Assembly (NCBI GenBank): GCA_044236265.1
Contig: JBIIGV010000230.1
Span: 1 to 10,792 of the forward strand
Source: Oligoflexales bacterium
Lineage (GTDB): Bacteria; Bdellovibrionota_B; Oligoflexia; Oligoflexales; RGVZ01
Reading direction: 5' to 3'
DNA: 10,792 bases
Shown here piece by piece: positions 632 through 10,792 of the stretch. The translations under genes and the position numbers were made by a program. Position 1 is the first letter of the stretch. Every line of letters begins with the position of its first letter. The notes under the pieces were generated by a model, which was not told the origin of the DNA, searched no databases, and worked only from the letters and a program-made list of their open reading frames with translations.

Positions 632-949
632 ATGGAAAATCAAAACATCAGAATCCGTTTACGTGGCTATGACCACAAGCTGATCGATAACGCAGCTGCG
701 GACATCGTCGAGCGCGCCAAGAGAACTGGTGCTCGCGTCGCCGGTCCGATTCCGTTGCCAACCGCCATCAGCCGCTACACGGTCCTCCGCAGTCCACACG
801 TGGACAAGAAGAGCCGTGAGCAGTTTGAAATTCGTACGCACAAGCGCATGCTCGATATCCTCGAAGCAAAGCAGCAGACCATTGACGCACTCATGAAGCT
901 AGACTTGGCTTCTGGTGTCGACGTCGATATCAAGCTGACTAAGAAGTAA
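632..949 (+). CDS. rpsJ: 30S ribosomal protein S10 (uS10/NusE)
   Basis: [37 protein letters not shown] motifs; first gene of the cluster. Confidence 0.99.
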
Positions 950-993
950 GAAGCGTTTGTTCTCGTTAACCCCGTAGAAAGCAGGTCTGAGAA

Positions 994-1632
994 ATGACTA
1001 CTCCAAAAGGATTGGTAGCTAAAAAGATCGGAATGACACGCATGGTCGGCAAAGACGGCCAGATGATTGCTGTCACTCTGCTCCAAGTTGAAAACCAGAA
1101 AGTTACAAAAGTTCTAACCAAAGAGCGTGATGGCTATGACGCTTATCAAGTTGGTTACAAGGAAACTAAAGAGAAGAATCTTGGAAAGCCTGACGTTGCG
1201 CGTATGCGTAAAGTTAATGTGAATGAAAACTTCACATGCTTTAAAGAATTCCGCACTGAAGCGCCTGTGGCTATTGAGCTCGGCACTCAGTTGACAACGG
1301 ATCTACTAAACGGCGTTACAGCTGTGGACGTGACAGGACTTACAAAGGGCCGTGGATTCTCCGGCTCTGTTAAGCGTTGGGACACGGCTGTTGGTCGTTG
1401 GTCACACGGTTCTCGTTTCCACCGAAGTCCAGGATCTCTTGGTACACGTACCACTCCAGGTCGCGTATTCATGGGTAAAAAGATTCCTGGTGTTTATGGA
1501 ACCGAGCAAGTCACAATCCAAAACCTAAACGTTGTGGATGTTGATGCAGAAAACAGCTTGATCGCGTTAAGTGGCGCCGTACCGGGACACCGTAACGGTT
1601 ACCTTTTCATCAAACCATCCATCAAAGCGTGA
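994..1632 (+). CDS. rplC: 50S ribosomal protein L3 (uL3)
   Basis: [42 protein letters not shown] motifs; synteny. Confidence 0.99.
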
Positions 1633-1651
1633 TCGGAGAGGAAGGTAACAA

Positions 1652-2293
1652 ATGGGAACTCAAATGGAAATTCAAGTAAAAGATATCAGTGGCAAGGCCG
1701 TAAAGAAAGTCGCTCTGTCGAGTGACGTCTTTGGTGTTGAGATGAATGAACACCTTCTTCATCTTGTTGTAAAAGCTTACCAAGCAAATCGTCGTCAGGG
1801 TACTCATGCTACCAAGACAAAAGCGATGGTAGCTGGTGGTGGAAAGAAGCCATTCAAGCAAAAAGGAACTGGCGAAGCGCGTCAAGGCTCAAGCCGTTCT
1901 CCTTTGAATCCAGGTGGCGGTGTATCGCATGGTCCACAACCACGCGACTACAATGAGAAGGTCAACGCCCGTTCGAAGCAAGTGGCTCTGGCTGTCGCAC
2001 TTAGCGACAAAGTACGCCACAACCGCTTGATTGTTGTCGATGACTTTAAAGTTGCTGGCAAGCCTAGCACCAAGCACGTTGTTAATGCTCTCAAAGCTCT
2101 GAAAGCAGAGAAAGCTTTGGTTCTTGATGAGCGCAAAGACGATTTGCTCTTCCGTTCGACTCGCAACATTCACGGCGCAGCTTGCGTTGCTCCAGCCGAA
2201 GTCAATGCTGAGCACGTTCTACGTTACGAAAACTTTGTCATCAGCATGACTGGACTTGACGCTCTCCAGCAGCGCTTTCAAGGGGGCAAATAA
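1652..2293 (+). CDS. rplD: 50S ribosomal protein L4 (uL4)
   Basis: RQGTHATKT, GGGKKPFKQKGTG-ARQGS, GGG..HGPQPRDY motifs; SD-like GGAGAGGAAGG upstream. ATG 1664 is an alternative start. Confidence 0.98.
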   Translation: MGTQMEIQVKDISGKAVKKVALSSDVFGVEMNEHLLHLVVKAYQANRRQGTHATKTKAMVAGGGKKPFKQKGTGEARQGSSRSPLNPGGGVSHGPQPRDYNEKVNARSKQVALAVALSDKVRHNRLIVVDDFKVAGKPSTKHVVNALKALKAEKALVLDERKDDLLFRSTRNIHGAACVAPAEVNAEHVLRYENFVISMTGLDALQQRFQGGK

Positions 2294-2580
2294 TGAATTC
2301 GTTTCAAATTCTCTCCAAGCCAGTATTGTCCGAGAAGAGTACGCTCGTTCGTGAGGACCTGAAGCAGTACACCTTCAAAGTCGATCTCCGCGCTACGAAG
2401 ACAGATGTTCGCAAAGCGATCGAAACTGTTTACGGAGTTAAAGTTGTCAAAGTTCAAACTTTGATTACACGCGGCAAAGTAGTTCGTAAGGGAAATAGCG
2501 TTTCTCTGACGAGCAAGACAAAGAAAGCGGTAGTGACACTTGTCGAAGGTGCGAAGCTTCCGTTGTTTGAAGAGCAATAA
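2293..2580 (+). CDS. rplW: 50S ribosomal protein L23 (uL23)
   Basis: PVLSEKS, YTFKVD..ATK, KKAVVTL motifs; TAATG overlap with the rplD stop codon. Confidence 0.97.
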   Translation: MNSFQILSKPVLSEKSTLVREDLKQYTFKVDLRATKTDVRKAIETVYGVKVVKVQTLITRGKVVRKGNSVSLTSKTKKAVVTLVEGAKLPLFEEQ

Positions 2581-2606
2581 AACAAAGCTGATAAGGAAAA
2601 CCAGAA

Positions 2607-3434
2607 ATGGCTATCAAGCAATACAAACCAACTACTCCAGGTCGTCGCGGCGCTTCCGTCGTCGACTTCTCGCAGCTCGACAAAGTGAAGCCACTTTCTC
2701 AAGCGCTTGAGAGTATGAAAGAGCACTCCGGTCGTAACAACACCGGTCGCATCACAATCCGTCATCAAGGCGGCGGAGCTCGTCGTCACTATCGTTTGAT
2801 CGACTGGCGTCGTGACAAACTCGATATCGTCGGCAAGGTTGAGTACGTTGAGTACGATCCGAACCGCAGCGCATTCATCGCACGCGTTCTCTACAAAGAC
2901 GGTGATCGTCGCTACATTCTTTGTCCAGATGGCCTTGCCAAGGGTGACGAAGTTGTAAGTTCCAAGACGGCTGACGTTAAGGTCGGCAACGCAATGCCTC
3001 TGAGCAATGTTCCTGTTGGTACATTCGTTCACAACATTGAAATGCGTCCCGGCAAAGGCGGCCAAATGGCTCGCTCAGCTGGTACCTACGCTCAGCTGAT
3101 GGGTCGTGTAGAAGGCTACGCTCAGCTTCGTATGCCAAGTGGTGAAATGCGCCGCGTTCCAGAAGAATGCTTCGCCTCCATTGGTCAGGTAGGAAACAAA
3201 GATCACTTCAACGAGACGATCGGTAAAGCAGGTCGTAGCCGTTGGCTTGGTATCCGTCCAACTGTTCGCGGTTGTACGATGAACCCTGTTGACCATCCGC
3301 ATGGTGGTGGTGAGGGTCGCGGTAAGGGTGGTAAGCACCCAGTATCTCCTTGGGCACAGCCAACCAAGGGTTACAAAACTCGTAAGAACAAGCGTACCGC
3401 GAAGAACATCATTCGCGATCGTCGTCAGAAGTAA
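2607..3434 (+). CDS. rplB: 50S ribosomal protein L2 (uL2)
   Basis: [40 protein letters not shown] motifs; TAAGGA SD. Confidence 0.99.
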
Positions 3435-3449
3435 TAGGAGGACACGCAC

Positions 3450-3722
3450 GTGGCTCGTTCACTCAAAAAAGGTCCGTTTGTTGATAATTACCTGTTCAAA
3501 AAGGCTGAACAGGGAAAGAAAGATAAAAAGCCTATCAAGACGTGGAGCCGCCGCTCTACGATTCTCCCAGAGTTTGTTGGTTTGACCTTCGCTGTGCACA
3601 ACGGCAACAAGTTCGTAACGATTCCTGTTACTGAGCACATGGTTGGTCATAAGTTTGGCGAATTTGCTCCGACTCGTACCTTCCATGGTCACGGGGACGA
3701 CAAAAAAGCCCCTAAAGCGTAA
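3450..3722 (+). CDS. rpsS: 30S ribosomal protein S19 (uS19)
   Basis: [35 protein letters not shown] motifs; GTG start with AGGAGG SD. Confidence 0.99.
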
Positions 3723-3741
3723 TTGAGAGAGGCAGATCATT

Positions 3742-4071
3742 ATGTATCAGGCAGTACTCAAGAATGTTCGTATATCGCCCCGCAAGATGCGTCTTGTCGC
3801 GGACCTAGTCCGTGGAAAACAAGTCCAGCTTGCGATGGACACGTTGCAGCTCACCAATAAGAAGGGTGCGCGCATCATGTCTAAAGTTTTGAAGTCAGCG
3901 ATCAGCAACGCTTCAGACGTGGCAACTATTGATGTGGATCGTCTACATATCGCGGAAGTGACTGTAGATATGGGGCCGGCCCTCCGGCGCTTCATTCCTC
4001 GCGCACAGGGTCGCGCGACACCGGTAAAAAAGCGGATGTCGCATGTAACTCTGCGTGTCAAGGAAGTCTGA
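3742..4071 (+). CDS. rplV: 50S ribosomal protein L22 (uL22)
   Basis: RISPRKMRLVADLVRG, SAISNA, PRAQGRA, SHVT motifs. Confidence 0.99.
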   Translation: MYQAVLKNVRISPRKMRLVADLVRGKQVQLAMDTLQLTNKKGARIMSKVLKSAISNASDVATIDVDRLHIAEVTVDMGPALRRFIPRAQGRATPVKKRMSHVTLRVKEV

Positions 4072-4102
4072 TTAAACTCAAGAAAGGAAGAGGTCAGAAA
4101 GC

Positions 4103-4741
4103 GTGGGACAGAAAGTAAATCCAATTGGTTTTAGATTAGGCATCACTCGTACGTGGTCATCTCGCTGGTTTGCGGACAATAAATACAAGTCCCTTCTCCA
4201 GGAAGACATTGAGATCCGTAAGTTTATCAATAAGAAGTTCGAAGCCGCTGGCGTTTCCCATGTGGAAATTGAGCGCGCAGCTCGTAACCTTAAGATTAAC
4301 ATCCACAGCAGCCGCCCCGGTATCATCATCGGTAAGAAAGGCGCTGGAGCTGACGATCTTAAGAAGGAAATCGTAACGAAGTGCAAGATCAAGTCCGGTG
4401 ATCCAGTTCTAAACGTATTTGAAGTAAAGAAGCCTGACTTGGACGCGAAACTCGTTGCTGAAAACATTCGTCAGCAGCTTGAAAAGCGCGTGTCGTTCCG
4501 CCGTGCAATGAAAAAGGCGATGACACAGTCGATTAAAGCTGGCGCAAAAGGCATCAAGGTCAGTCTTTCAGGACGCCTTGGTGGAGCAGACATGTCCCGC
4601 ACAGAGCGCTATATGGAAGGTCGTGTTCCTCTCCATACGATGCGCGCTGATATCGACTATGCAACAGCTGAAGCTTACACGACTTATGGCCTAACAGGCG
4701 TTAAGGTGTGGATCTTCAAAGGCGACATTCTTACTAACTGA
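4103..4741 (+). CDS. rpsC: 30S ribosomal protein S3 (uS3)
   Basis: [49 protein letters not shown] motifs; GTG start. Confidence 0.99.
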
Positions 4742-4769
4742 TTTTTACTTAAGCTGAGAGGAAAGCACA

Positions 4770-5192
4770 ATGCTAGCCCCTAAGAGATTAAAATACCGCA
4801 AGTCCCACAAAGGACGCATCAAGGGTAAGGCCAAAGGCGGCACCGAGTTGACAAAGGGTGACTACGGTCTAATGGCTCTTGAATCTGGCAAGGTGACTGC
4901 TCGTCAAATCGAAGCAGCCCGTATTGCCATGACCCGTCACATTAAGCGTGGTGGAGAAGTTCTAATCAAGATCTTCCCAGATAAGCCTATCACCAAGAAG
5001 CCTGCGGAGACCCGAATGGGCTCTGGTAAAGGTGGCGTAGAGTACTACATCGCGGTGATCAAACCAGGCAAAATCCTTTATGAAATGGCCGGTGTCGATA
5101 AGGCTGTGGCGTCTGAGGCTCTTGGCCTTGCCGCTGCCAAGCTCAACATCAAGACGAAACTCATCACCAGACAAGATGATCCGTGGGGTTAA
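4770..5192 (+). CDS. rplP: 50S ribosomal protein L16 (uL16)
   Basis: [42 protein letters not shown] motifs. Confidence 0.99.
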
Positions 5193-5195
5193 GTT

Positions 5196-5423
5196 ATGGA
5201 TATCAATAAGCTAAATGTAAAAGAAGTGCGCGCCATGGACTCCAAGAAAATTGGAGATGCTGCCAAGTTGATTCGTAAAGAGCTTGTCGGCCTTCGTATG
5301 GACGTGTATAACGCCGGTCCACAGTCTAAGAGCAAGTCTCGTAACCTGCGTAAGACGCTGGCTCGCCTGCTCACAGTCAGTGGTGAGAAGACCAACGCAG
5401 TCGCTCAAAAAAGCAAGAAATAA
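5196..5423 (+). CDS. rpmC: 50S ribosomal protein L29 (uL29), divergent
   Basis: Canonical position between rplP and rpsQ; 75 aa; partial motifs KEVR, ELVGLRM, RKTLARLLTV. Confidence 0.88.
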   Translation: MDINKLNVKEVRAMDSKKIGDAAKLIRKELVGLRMDVYNAGPQSKSKSRNLRKTLARLLTVSGEKTNAVAQKSKK

Positions 5424-5436
5424 TTAAGAGGCAACA

Positions 5437-5703
5437 ATGAGTCAGGCATCCGAAACCAACAAAACTGTAAAAGAAATTCGCTGCGTTGTAACCAGCGACA
5501 AGATGACGAAGTCCCGCGTTGGCGTCGTCGAGCGCCTAGTGAAGCACCCGCTCGCAGGCAAGTACATCCGTCGTCGCACGAAGCTAATGTTTCATGATGA
5601 CACGAATCAATCAAAGATTGGTGACGAGGTGATCATCACCCCTAGCCGTCCATTGAGTGCAAGAAAGAAGTTCACCTTGGTACGAGTTGTACGTAAGGCG
5701 TAA
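5437..5703 (+). CDS. rpsQ: 30S ribosomal protein S17 (uS17)
   Basis: [21 protein letters not shown]...GD.V.I, RPLSARK motifs. Confidence 0.98.
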
Positions 5704-5761
5704 TTTAGGTTCGATTGGGTGCTTGTATCAAGCAAGCGCGAAACTTATAGGAGCGAACGAA

Positions 5762-6133
5762 ATGATCCAGATGGAAACAGTCCTCGCGGCAGGGGACAAC
5801 TCAGGAGCTAAGAGGCTGAAGTGCTTCAAAGTGCTGGGTGGAAGTAAGAAGAAGTATGCCTCCGTCGGCGATATCATCGTAGTCTCGGTCAAAGAGGCGG
5901 TCGCCAACAGCAAGGTAGCAAAAGGCTCCGTGCACAAGGCAGTCGTTGTCCGCACTACGAAAGAAATCAAGCGCAAAGATGGTTCTACCATCCGCTTTGA
6001 TCAGAATGCTGCGGTACTCATCAAAGGCAAAGATAACGAGCCAGTCGGCACCCGTATTTTCGGGCCGGTAGCACGTGAAGTTCGTGTAGCGGGTTTTGGT
6101 CGCATTGCGTCCCTCGCTCCCGAAGTATTGTAA
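5762..6133 (+). CDS. rplN: 50S ribosomal protein L14 (uL14)
   Basis: True start is MIQMETVL at ATG 5762 with AGGAG SD at 5749-5753, not the ORF-track start 5657. [24 protein letters not shown] motifs. Confidence 0.99.
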
Positions 6134-6169
6134 TTGACACTCAACGATTGTTCGAAAGTGAGAACAACA

Positions 6170-6715
6170 ATGGATATGCCAAGACTTCAAAAACAGTATG
6201 AAAAAGAGTTCCGCGCAGCTCTCGTAAAAGAGCTGGGTCTCAAAAACGTGATGCAGGTCCCACAATTGAAAAAAATCGTGGTCAACATCGGTCAAGGAGA
6301 AGCGACTCAGAACATCAAAACTCTGGAAGCTGCTGCCGCTGAGTTAGCTGCCATCACTGGCCAAAAGCCGGTTTTGACTCGCGCTAAGAAGAGCATCGCA
6401 ACATTTAAGCTTCGTCAGGGTGCACCAATCGGTTGTTCGGTGACTCTTCGCCGTGCGCGCATGTGGGAATTCCTCGACCGTTTTATCAACGTGTCTGTTC
6501 CTCGTGTTCGCGACTTTAAGGGATTCACCCCTAAAGCGTTTGACGGTCGTGGAAACTACACTGTCGGTGTGAAAGAGCAGATTATTTTCCCGGAAATCGA
6601 TTATGACAAGGTCGACAAAATCCGTGGAATGGGGATTACTTTTGTAACGAGCTCTGAAAACGACGCTCATGCAAAAGCCCTGCTTGATAAATTCAACTTC
6701 CCGTTCCGTAAATAA
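6170..6715 (+). CDS. rplE: 50S ribosomal protein L5 (uL5)
   Basis: Start ATG 6170 (GTGAG 7 nt upstream; ATG 6176 is an alternative). [30 protein letters not shown] motifs. Confidence 0.98.
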
Positions 6716-6744
6716 TCAGGACGCCCAGAGGATAGGAGCTCAAA

Positions 6745-6930
6745 ATGGCAACTAAAGCCATGATCGAAAAAGCAAACAAGAAGCCAAAGTTTTCAACTCG
6801 TGCCTACACACGTTGCACCAATTGTGGTCGCCCCAAGGCGGTTTATCGCAAGTTCGGCGTTTGCCGTATTTGCTTCCGCTTGATGGCCCTCAAGGGACTG
6901 CTCCCGGGTGTAAAAAAGGCTTCTTGGTAA
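6745..6930 (+). CDS. rpsN: 30S ribosomal protein S14, zinc-binding type Z (uS14 C+)
   Basis: 61 aa with CTNC...CRIC zinc ligands and a [10 protein letters not shown]-terminus. Confidence 0.98.
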
Positions 6931-6963
6931 TCAACCGACTGCAAGATTTTTGGAGATAAAAAT

Positions 6964-7362
6964 ATGCGCGCAAATGACCCAATCGCAGATCTTCTCACCA
7001 GGATCCGCAACGCACAGCAAGCAAAACACGAAGTTGTTTCTGTGCCAGCATCCATGGTGAAGATTGCTGTGACCCACATCCTAAAGGATGAAGGCTTCAT
7101 CAAAAACTATAAGTGTATCCGCGACCGCAAACAGGGCGTTATCAAAATCGCTCTTAAGTACACTGACGACGGTCAAGGCGCTATCCGCAACATTTCGCGC
7201 GTTAGCACTCCGAGTCAGCGTATTTATGTTGGCGTAGACAAAATCCCATACGTTAAAAACGGCTTGGGCGTAGCAATTCTTTCGACTCCGAAGGGTGTGA
7301 TGGCTGACCGCGAGGCACGCCAGCTCAACGTCGGTGGCGAACACATCTGTTCCGTTTATTGA
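6964..7362 (+). CDS. rpsH: 30S ribosomal protein S8 (uS8)
   Basis: DPIADLLTRIRNA, ILKDEGFI, GLGVAILSTPKGVM, VGGE motifs. Confidence 0.99.
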   Translation: MRANDPIADLLTRIRNAQQAKHEVVSVPASMVKIAVTHILKDEGFIKNYKCIRDRKQGVIKIALKYTDDGQGAIRNISRVSTPSQRIYVGVDKIPYVKNGLGVAILSTPKGVMADREARQLNVGGEHICSVY

Positions 7363-7380
7363 TCGGCGGAGGAGTAAAAC

Positions 7381-7923
7381 ATGTCTCGTATTGGTAAGAA
7401 ACCAGTTGAAATTGTAAAAGGCGTTGAAGTCTCCGTTAGCGGTCAGACTGTCAAGGTTAAGGGCCCAAAGGGCGCTGTAGAGCGCAAGATTCACGACTCC
7501 ATGACTGCAGTTGTTGAAGGCGGAGCCGTCAAGGTTGTGCCAAAGACAGCAGGTGTTGAAGATGCCCGTTTCCACGGTCTGACTCGCACTCTTATCGCAA
7601 ACATGGTTCACGGAGTGACTCAAGGCTTCTCAAAGACTCTGACACTCGTGGGCGTTGGTTACAAAGCTGCTCAAAGCGGTAAGAATATCACGCTAAACGT
7701 TGGCTACAGTCACCCAGTCGAAATCAAGGCTCCGGCTGGAGTTGAGTTGAAAATTGACAAGGCTGTCAACATTGTTGTTTCAGGCCCAGAGAAAGAAGTT
7801 GTAGGGCAACTTGCAGCAACTATCCGCGGGATTCGTCCACCTGAGCCATATCATGGCAAGGGCATTCGATATATGGATGAAGTGATCGTAACTAAAGTTG
7901 GTAAAGCAGCTGGTAAGAAGTAA
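7381..7923 (+). CDS. rplF: 50S ribosomal protein L6 (uL6)
   Basis: MSRIGKKP, VKGPKG, LVGVGYKA, GYSHP, RPPEPYHGKGIRY motifs; GGAGGAG SD. Confidence 0.99.
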   Translation: MSRIGKKPVEIVKGVEVSVSGQTVKVKGPKGAVERKIHDSMTAVVEGGAVKVVPKTAGVEDARFHGLTRTLIANMVHGVTQGFSKTLTLVGVGYKAAQSGKNITLNVGYSHPVEIKAPAGVELKIDKAVNIVVSGPEKEVVGQLAATIRGIRPPEPYHGKGIRYMDEVIVTKVGKAAGKK

Positions 7924-7959
7924 TAACTACTATCGTCCTGCTGTATAAGTGAGGAAACC

Positions 7960-8313
7960 ATGGCAAATAAAGTCGCAAAAAAGAATGAGCTTCGATTCCG
8001 TCGTAAGCTTCGTATCCGCAAGAAAGTCTCGGGAACCGCAGAGCGTCCGCGCTTGTCGGTATTCCGCTCTGCTCGTCACATCACGGCTCAAGTGATTGAT
8101 GACGTAACGGGTAAGACTCTCGTTGCAGTCAACTCTTATGAAGTTGGTAGCCGTGCAAACAAAGACGTTTGTACAAAAGTTGGTAAGGACCTTGCTGCGA
8201 AGTGCAAGGCTGCCAAGATCGACGCGGTTGTTTTTGATAAGAACGGTTATCGCTACCACGGTCGCATCGCAGCTCTTGCTGCAGGTGCTCGTGATGGTGG
8301 CTTGAACTTCTAA
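7960..8313 (+). CDS. rplR: 50S ribosomal protein L18 (uL18)
   Basis: [38 protein letters not shown] motifs. Confidence 0.99.
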
Positions 8314-8354
8314 TTTCGTCTCAGACAACTGATAAAAGAATCGAGGAGAATCTC

Positions 8355-8957
8355 GTGGCAAAAGAACAAAAAGAAAATAAAGAAGTAAAGAGACCTGATC
8401 AGGCCGCTGGCGCAGCGGGTCAAGAAGGTGACGGTTTCCAGGACCGCGTAGTTCACATTGCGCGTGTTGCAAAGGTTGTTAAGGGCGGTCGTCGCTTCAG
8501 CTTCTCTGCTCTTGTAGTGGTGGGTGATGGCAAAGGTCGCGTTGGCTTTGGCTTAGGCAAGGCTGGCGAAGTTCCCGACGCAATCAAGAAGGGTGCAGAT
8601 CAGGCTAAGAAAAATCTAGTCAAAGTCGTTGCACTTGATGGAACGATTCCATTTGACGTGACTGGCAAGTTTGGTGCCGCAAAAGTTCTGATGTTCCCTG
8701 CGAAAAAGGGAACTGGAACGATTGCCGGTGGTGCGGTTCGTATCATTTGTGAATTGGCTGGTATTCAGGACATCGTTTGTAAGGTGCATGGCACCAAGAA
8801 CTATCACTCAGTTGTTCGTGCAACTGTAAATGGTTTGACACAACTCGTATCTCCTGATGATTATGCTGCAACTCGTGGAAAGACGCTTGCAGAGGTTCTT
8901 CAAGTTCGTGGATCTAAGAAGAAAACAGCAGCAAAAAAGACAGCAGCAGCCAAGTAA
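8355..8957 (+). CDS. rpsE: 30S ribosomal protein S5 (uS5) with N- and C-terminal extensions
   Basis: [41 protein letters not shown] motifs; GTG start with GAGGAG SD. Confidence 0.98.
8919..8948 (+). repeat. 15-nt in-frame tandem duplication encoding KKTAA x2
   Basis: AAGAAAACAGCAGCA / AAAAAGACAGCAGCA, 13 of 15 identical. Confidence 0.8.
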
Positions 8958-9009
8958 TAGAAATGCTCACTCGCAACGAGAGTGAGATGAAGAAGATAGG
9001 AGTTAGAAC

Positions 9010-9192
9010 ATGAGCCAGATTGTTGTGACGCAAAAGCGCAGCCTGATCGGCCAATCCGAAGCCAACCAGCGTGTGGTGAAAGGTTTGGGTCTCGGTCGTA
9101 TTGGGAAAACTAAGACTCACAAAGACAACAACTGTATCCGCGGCATGATCAACAAGGTTAAGCACCTTGTTAGCTACGAACTTAAGGCGTGA
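9010..9192 (+). CDS. rpmD: 50S ribosomal protein L30 (uL30)
   Basis: VTQKRSLIG, GLGL.RIG, IRGMINKVKHLV motifs; AGGAG SD. Confidence 0.98.
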   Translation: MSQIVVTQKRSLIGQSEANQRVVKGLGLGRIGKTKTHKDNNCIRGMINKVKHLVSYELKA

Positions 9193-9221
9193 GACGTTGA
9201 TCTCAACTAGAAGGTGATAAA

Positions 9222-9689
9222 ATGACAACGAAAACTGAAATGAAGCATCTTGGAAACCTGAGCCCTGCTCCTGGTTCCAACGTGAAGAAAAAGCGCCTTG
9301 GTCGCGGCCCAGGTAGCGGTCTCGGTAAGACGGCTGCTCGCGGTGGCAAAGGTCAGACAGCTCGTAAGGGCGGTGGTATTCGCGCTGGATTTGAGGGTGG
9401 TCAAACTCCTCTTTACCGTCGTTTGCCAAAGCGTGGTTTTACAAATCCATTCCGCGTTGAGTACAACGTGGTAAACATCTCGGTGCTCGAGAAGTTTGAC
9501 GCAGGCACGAAGGTGACCCCAGAATTCCTTAACGAAAAGGGACTACTTCGCAACCCAGCCAACCCAGTGAAGGTTCTTGGTAAGGGTGAGCTCAAAAAGA
9601 AACTGACAGTCGCAGTTCACAAGGTTAGTGCTACCGCGAAGTCGGCTATTGAGAAAGCGGGCGGAAGCGTCGAAGTTAAGGAGAAATGA
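9222..9689 (+). CDS. rplO: 50S ribosomal protein L15 (uL15)
   Basis: [46 protein letters not shown] motifs; AAGGTG SD upstream of ATG 9222. Confidence 0.99.
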
Positions 9690-10792
9690 GCGTGGCTCAA
9701 GGCATCAGTAAGCTTCCTGAGGGCACGCTGAATCACCTTCAGAAGAAGATTCTCTATACCCTACTATTTCTTGCTATTTACCGTATCGGTGTTCACATTC
9801 CGATTGCCGGAGTTGACACACCTGCTCTTGCTGAATTCTTTAGGACCCAGGGCGCGAATCTTTTCGGGATGTTCAACATGTTCTCGGGTGGTGCACTTGA
9901 GCGCTTCAGTGTGTTTGCGCTTGGAGTGATGCCTTACATCTCGGCTTCGATCATTGCGCAGCTTCTGACGGTCGTCGTTCCTTATCTGGAGCAACTCTCT
10001 AAAGAAGGCGAAGCCGGACGTCGCAAAATTAACCAGTACACTCGTTATGCAACCATGATTCTGGCTTTGTTCCAGGGCTACATGATTGCTGCTGGCTTGG
10101 AAAGCCAGGCGTTCCAGGGTGGTCGATTGGTGATTGAAGGCGGACTTGCTTGGCGTTTAATGACGGCTCTTAGTTTGACCGCTGGTACTGCTTTCGTGAT
10201 GTGGCTTGGCGAGAGAATTACGGAATTTGGCGTTGGAAACGGCATGTCCCTGATTATCTTCTCTGGTATCGTCGCGGGACTTCCCAAGATCATTACCAGT
10301 ACATACTCTCAGTACGCCCAGAGCCAGATGGATCTTGGTCGCATTCTGATGATTATTGTCCTGGTCGTTCTGATTATCGCTGGTGTGGTGTTCATGGAGC
10401 AAGGCGTTCGTCAGGTTCCGGTTCAGTACGCTAAGCGTCAGGTTGGTGGCAAAATCTACGGGGGCCAAAATACTCACTTACCCATCCGTCTAAATGCGGC
10501 TGGTGTTATTCCGCCGATTTTTGCGAGCTCCCTGCTACAGTTTCCGCAAACGATAGCGGCTGTGTCGCCGCAGTCGAAGTTTGCAGATGTTATCAATTCA
10601 GCTTTCGTTCCAGGTGGTTGGCTTTATAACACTGTTTACGTTCTGCTGATTCTATTCTTTGCGTTTTTCTACACGTCCATCACATTTAAAGCTGATGATA
10701 TCGCTGAGAGCTTGAAAAAGCATGGCGGCTTCATTCCTGGGATTCGTCCTGGCGCGAGAACGTCGGAGTACATTAATAAGATTGTGTCGAGA
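9686..10792 (+). CDS. secY: Preprotein translocase subunit SecY (3'-truncated by window)
   Basis: Not in the ORF track because it has no stop in the window. Manual translation gives [66 protein letters not shown] and [10 protein letters not shown]. Start is ATG 9686 (ATGA overlap with rplO) or GTG 9692 (better spacing from AAGGAG 9678-9683). Confidence 0.98.

Follow-up and report, generated by a model that had tools for sequence, protein, structure and literature searches.

The gene for ribosomal protein uL24, rplX, has left the S10-spc gene cluster of a freshwater Oligoflexales bacterium: its slot between rplN and rplE is empty, an intact single copy lies at another address that is common to the order, the signals flanking that copy are conserved, and the species tree places a lineage with the ordinary operon outside Oligoflexales and Silvanigrellaceae. 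We propose, with moderate confidence in the parts taken jointly, that rplX made one ancestral exit from the operon, that it is likely expressed from its new site in this organism, and that it was later likely lost in the Silvanigrellaceae. uL24 is one of the two classical initiators of 50S assembly, the other being uL3.

The analysis started from a stretch of 10,792 nucleotides, hereafter the window, whose relevant features, all on the plus strand, are as follows.

632..10792, +, S10-spc cluster from rpsJ to secY, in canonical order except for rplX; secY is cut at the window end
5762..6133, +, rplN (uL14), the usual predecessor of rplX; TIGR01067, 165 bits
6134..6169, +, rplN-rplE spacer of 36 nt, the vacated rplX slot
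6148..6167, +, weak 6-bp hairpin, predicted, just 5' of the rplE start codon
6170..6715, +, rplE (uL5), now right behind rplN, with an ATG start; NF000585, 286 bits

An earlier note on this DNA had described a 36-nt gap in an otherwise complete cluster, and both statements hold. The rplN stop at 6133 and the rplE ATG at 6170 were re-read in the sequence and both genes are matched by profiles, while all 21 cluster ORFs match their own NCBIfam families, rpsQ and rpmC being the weakest. uL29 is present (28.7 bits for a cut-off of 22.6), as is uL30. The 36 nt leave no room for rplX, and no ORF of at least 40 aa fits in the spacer. The canonical position of rplX in the spc operon, between rplN and rplE, is thus vacant, and the remaining genes from rplN to secY follow in canonical order. 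The spc operon of E. coli resembles the window in the order of these other genes and differs from it in that rplX has been excised here. According to the available text of PMC3616713, S8 bound at the start of rplE exerts retroregulation on rplN and rplX in E. coli; outside the operon, rplX would have to be controlled in another way.

The hairpin near the rplE start has a predicted stability of -5.6 kcal/mol for 6131-6175, and its core is kept in six of nine close relatives checked, among which no compensatory change was seen. In genus g3 the rplN-rplE junction holds another conserved element, GC-rich and some 60 nt long (L041, L044-L046, L050, L079). The hairpin at 6148-6167 and the g3 element are each a possible site of translational control; in E. 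coli this is where S8 acts. The TTGACA at 6134-6139 was discarded as an internal promoter: there is no -10 downstream, and relatives differ at this position. An ORF at 2-418, before rpsJ, is unrelated and has no NCBIfam match.

The gap is not an artefact of assembly. Contigs of four public runs (X1, X4, X7 and X6) bridge the spacer with neither an indel nor a joint; the insertion of about 300 nt that, by the note, would reveal an assembly artefact is not there. These are assembled contigs, not raw reads, and X1 is a possible source of the window DNA itself. The X4 contig spans 5400-6301 with 0 differences, that of X7 spans 6028-6252, and that of X6 spans 6107-6269, with only 27 letters on the left side. 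Comparison of the junction across the clade agrees: at 29 rplN loci of Oligoflexales, the rplN stop lies 21-220 nt before the first aligned rplE residue. The bridging contigs and these short junctions together rule out a misassembled gap.

A search of the whole genome (G000) with uL24 and KOW profiles shows where the gene has gone, on the minus strand of another contig.

G000:C161:2675-3010 (locus L001:1495-1830), -, rplX (uL24), 112 aa from the second in-frame ATG
G000:C161:2672-3031, -, longest rplX ORF

TIGR01079, PF17136 and PF00467 all match this one frame. TIGR01079 scores it at 113.4 bits (cut-off 53.7) over model positions 2-103 of 104, with no stop; PF00467 (KOW) gives 37.4 bits at residues 15-46 and PF17136 (ribosomal_L24) 89.6 bits at 48-111. 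In an unfiltered six-frame scan of the genome it reaches 152.6 bits and the next-best frame 11.3. rplX is therefore intact and single-copy in this genome. On one side a DsbD-like gene points away from it, and on the other a fatty-acid desaturase gene converges with it. The note had left relocation and loss side by side; for this genome relocation stands and loss falls. The alternative assembly route that a loss would have implied does not apply to this organism, since an intact rplX is present. The note's view that general genome reduction is not at work is borne out by a genome of 3.2 Mb that keeps uL29, uL30, bL9 and trigger factor.

It could be argued that uL24 is lost here after all and that its copy on C161 was binned with this genome by mistake, or that the gap was misassembled, because the genome is in 234 contigs, 88.7% complete and 2.5% contaminated. 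We consider this very improbable indeed. The GC content of C161 (0.490) matches that of the window (0.493), its uL24 is 74-89% identical to that of 11 aligned loci of the same genus, and the dsbD context recurs across the order, including in single-contig genomes; these three points rule out C161 as a contaminant, and independent contigs bridge the spacer. The window is also present in the public runs that were retrieved with the rplX locus.

Several signals suggest that the relocated gene is in use. Its codon score, 0.04, lies at the 99th percentile of the background (0.04; mean -0.11), and the operon ribosomal genes, which formed the training set of the score, range from -0.02 to 0.19; by this measure its codon use resembles theirs. 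A TTGAC motif precedes the KOW codons by 80-150 nt at 27 of 30 rplX loci (1.7 expected), and a hairpin followed by a T-run lies at most 120 nt downstream of the gene at 24 of 30 (1.3 expected). Both the 80-150 nt window and the terminator rule were set after inspection of the sequences, and the loci are not independent, 20 of the 30 being from one family. The conserved TTGAC site was missed by a generic promoter scan, since the consensus T is absent from its -10, and the generic terminator scan found one terminator, with 1.1 expected by chance. From the sequence we consider it likely that rplX is still expressed from its own promoter in this genome. The stand-alone gene would be strongly expressed and free of the control through S8 to which rplN-rplX is subject in E. 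coli.

The putative 3' UTR of rplX contains a 27-nt stretch (L001:1447-1473, minus strand; G000:C161:2627-2653) that runs into the terminator. It is nearly invariant in most loci of the same genus, single-copy in this genome, and starts with a pyrimidine-rich run resembling an anti-Shine-Dalgarno sequence. A small RNA from this region is possible.

The new address is shared well beyond this genome. We surveyed 103 genomes of the class with completeness of at least 85%, 74 of them in Oligoflexales; a phylum-wide search returned the same class only. rplX was found in 72 of the 74 Oligoflexales genomes, and the two without a match are fragmented (460 and 910 contigs). Among the 70 genomes with both genes, none has rplX adjacent to rplN, one likely contaminant copy aside, and in the five genomes where both lie on one contig they are 0.2-1.6 Mb apart. 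The single adjacent rplN-rplX pair involves an extra rplX in genome G020, which has 8% contamination, and lies on a contig of 1.8 kb; the rplN beside it is 69% identical to that of the window, and G020's own rplN 86%. We read this pair as contamination. This likely contaminant aside, no genome with both an operon and a stand-alone rplX was found. Two matches in the order are partial, one at a contig edge (G010) and one below the cut-off: the uL24 match at G063:C13:3550-3753 covers model positions 3-69 only, in an 88-aa frame, and this uL24 may be truncated.

The best 80 rplN loci from genome contigs divide in the same way. No rplX is found near the top 45; one of these ends at the match and is uninformative, seven were placed in the tree, and the others were taken as Oligoflexales by rank. 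The other 35, from other lineages, have rplX, and rplN-rplX-rplE is kept in 35/35. A DsbD_N/DsbD_TM gene stands divergently beside rplX at 25 of the 30 loci with the best rplX scores; among these 25 are 8 of the 10 loci outside the window's family. The distribution indicates that the relocation is old and common to the order Oligoflexales.

Family f17, basal in the class, gives the polarity of the change, as it keeps rplN-rplX-rplE in both genomes (2/2). In Silvanigrellaceae (family f18, assigned through the named members of its uL14 cluster), rplN adjoins rplE in all 12 junctions read. A FastTree species tree from uL14, uL5, uS14 and part of uL16 (55 loci, about 500 columns, with long branches) joins Oligoflexales and Silvanigrellaceae with support 1.0 and places f17 outside (0.81). 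The simplest reading is that rplX left the operon a single time, in an ancestor common to Oligoflexales and Silvanigrellales.

The gene tree of uL24 itself is less straightforward. The Oligoflexales sequences form one clade (SH-aLRT 100) that is not sister to f17 and sits among alphaproteobacterial and Alicyclobacillus-type sequences, to which the mean identity is 0.45-0.54 as against 0.38 to f17. This topology would fit a loss of rplX in the common ancestor followed by the gain of a foreign rplX at the dsbD locus in Oligoflexales, the Silvanigrellaceae retaining the loss. However, an AU test (35 of 69 sequences, 116 columns, LG+G4) does not reject Oligoflexales and f17 as one clade (p 0.3), the branch of f17 is long, and the close outsiders include several that had been chosen as top matches of the Oligoflexales profile. 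Since vertical descent is not rejected, we treat foreign replacement as a minor and quite improbable rival to a single ancestral exit.

The Oligoflexales case shows one hallmark of a translocation: an intact rplX lies elsewhere, and rplN and rplE are still joined. The available text of PMC8046335 explains exits of single genes from the ribosomal cluster as deletions that came after the gene had been duplicated or where a homolog was already present. Those cases are alike in that a single gene is gone from between neighbours that remain joined, with a copy kept elsewhere. That text covers Gammaproteobacteria and Bacilli, and 'rplX' is absent from its main text; unlike the cases described there, the Oligoflexales event is order-wide and has one conserved new address. 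By analogy, the event appears to work like the known single-gene translocations, with a gene unlisted in those sources. We propose the following sequence for the ancestral exit. A duplicate of rplX with its own promoter and terminator would have arisen beside dsbD, and the operon copy would have been deleted before the split of Oligoflexales and Silvanigrellales. With the remaining copy, the Oligoflexales organism would build a normal, uL24-containing 50S subunit.

Silvanigrellaceae share the empty slot, and searches for uL24 in this family came back negative. TIGR01079 matches 0 of 27 genomes, in 25 of which rplN is found; the 27 include two single-contig and two three-contig genomes, 96-99% complete, the closed ones being 2.8-3.7 Mb. 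A uL24 clade profile gives matches in 7 of the 27, all unrelated and with E above 0.1. PF17136 and an f17 uL24 protein query each find nothing in five genomes (0/5), and no rplX-like gene faces dsbD in any of four (4/4). TIGR01080 yields weak false matches only, to RsmE and others, and a KOW profile finds NusG alone above or near the cut-off; two KOW patterns have no match. The weak uL24 matches in the family are to RsmE, to RpiB-like and sugar-binding proteins (these two identified by eye) and to other unrelated frames. In an unfiltered scan of G096 with a 54-sequence profile, the best E among 46,130 frames, covering 2.35 of 3.34 Mb (70%), is 4.5; the other 30% of the chromosome and two small contigs were covered by the filtered genome search only.

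Screens for small basic ORFs recovered S9, L13, L21, L27, L28, L32 and S18, identified by eye, and no uL24-like candidate by inspection, either among the 22 with ribosomal codon use (of 566) or among the 43 kept by a looser filter (of 606), six of which were scanned with Pfam. Database searches add little: none of the best 120 of 7,999 protein matches to the uL24 profile is named Silvanigrellales, a weak negative as most are unnamed, and an ESM Atlas search that skips L24 families gave no usable match, which by the tool's own note is uninformative. Silvanigrellaceae uL5 has an N-terminal extension of 30-45 aa with a conserved tail (L065-L076). That this extension is a fused remnant of uL24 is unlikely, Pfam finding L5 domains only.

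On these searches we judge it rather probable that rplX has been lost in Silvanigrellaceae. The loss falls short of proof because the same tools miss a uL29 gene that is in the operon and because 23S domain I is intact. Pfam L29 misses this gene in 8/8 Silvanigrellaceae, a 71-sequence clade profile gives the protein 10 bits, and its best uL29 match in the PDB has an E of 0.23. A stand-alone uL24 that had diverged past profile detection, so that relocation occurred with no loss, is a less likely explanation and a somewhat doubtful one, to be weighed nonetheless. It draws on the escape of uL29, on the low identity of Silvanigrellaceae uL3, uL22 and uL30 to those of this genome (35-38%), on the part of G096 outside the exhaustive scan, and on the absence of a large deletion in 23S domain I. 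The available text of PMC12321486 adds that complete genomes of the family's order score 74-77% in BUSCO, and Table S2 of PMC7386786 lists TIGR01079 and 16 other markers as 'not present in all investigated genomes', the genomes being unspecified and the entry without comment. Against it, uL24 is longer than uL29 and has a strong KOW motif, uS17, equally diverged in Silvanigrellaceae, is still found at 42 bits, and neither the G096 scan, the KOW patterns nor the small-ORF screens gave a candidate.

The ribosomal RNA gives no sign of remodelling at the uL24 site. The helices of 23S domain I are retained without large deletion in two Silvanigrellaceae compared with two Oligoflexales and E. coli. 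Elsewhere in the Silvanigrellaceae 23S rRNA (L311, L312; G102) there are deletions near E. coli 1517 (13-14 nt) and 1713 (26-29 nt), and one of the three 23S copies of G079 (L316) is about 300 nt longer (3,221 vs 2,918 nt), by insertion or duplication. In G096, rpsJ comes straight after rpoC, without the str operon between them (L317:295-4913), and the stretch from rpsK to rpoA contains no ORF of the size of rpsD (L318:171-2795).

If rplX was lost after its exit, the route may have been simple: outside the operon the gene would be deletable without disturbing its neighbours, which would allow a clean loss in Silvanigrellaceae. We think it reasonably probable that Silvanigrellaceae assemble 50S subunits without uL24, with a remodelled tunnel-exit face and another assembly route, and that the stand-alone rplX of Oligoflexales represents the intermediate in which a gene leaves the operon before it vanishes. 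A short uL3 (183 aa in Silvanigrellaceae, 212 aa in this genome) and strongly diverged uL4, uL22 and uL29 point to such a remodelled face and a different route. In the available text of PMC2770661, SrmB links L4 and L24 in early assembly.

According to the available text of PMC7782861, loss of uL24 is confined to drastically reduced genomes, and E. coli knockouts are reported viable. These tiny-genome losses are a precedent for Silvanigrellaceae in that uL24 is dispensable in some lineages; the window's own genome differs from them in not having lost uL24. Silvanigrellaceae, in contrast to the tiny genomes, have genomes of 1.8-5.4 Mb and keep bL9 (8/8), trigger factor (4/4) and bL20 (4/4), with no co-loss of any of the three, which counts somewhat against a loss of uL24, and so lack the marks of genome reduction (under 1 Mb, bL9 or trigger factor co-lost). 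A parallel is given by the lineage-wide losses of S21, L25, L30 and L34 in free-living bacteria described in the available text of 10.1101/2021.01.31.429008, where, as in Silvanigrellaceae, whole clades with normal-sized genomes lack one protein; that text, tables and supplements aside, holds no such case for L24 and no mention of Silvanigrella or Oligoflexia. In the literature, subscription papers and bioRxiv supplements aside, we found no report of the rplX relocation in Oligoflexales or of its absence in Silvanigrellaceae, the sole trace being the TIGR01079 entry in Table S2 of PMC7386786.

The window records a break in a gene order that is among the most stable; such a break is rare, and this one defines a clade. 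The empty slot is a marker for two orders, and a warning that operon- or marker-based checks can misreport uL24. If the loss is true, cultured freshwater Silvanigrellaceae with genomes of 3-4 Mb lack uL24 yet keep its rRNA helices, and they would offer a natural, growable system for early 50S assembly and the tunnel exit without uL24.
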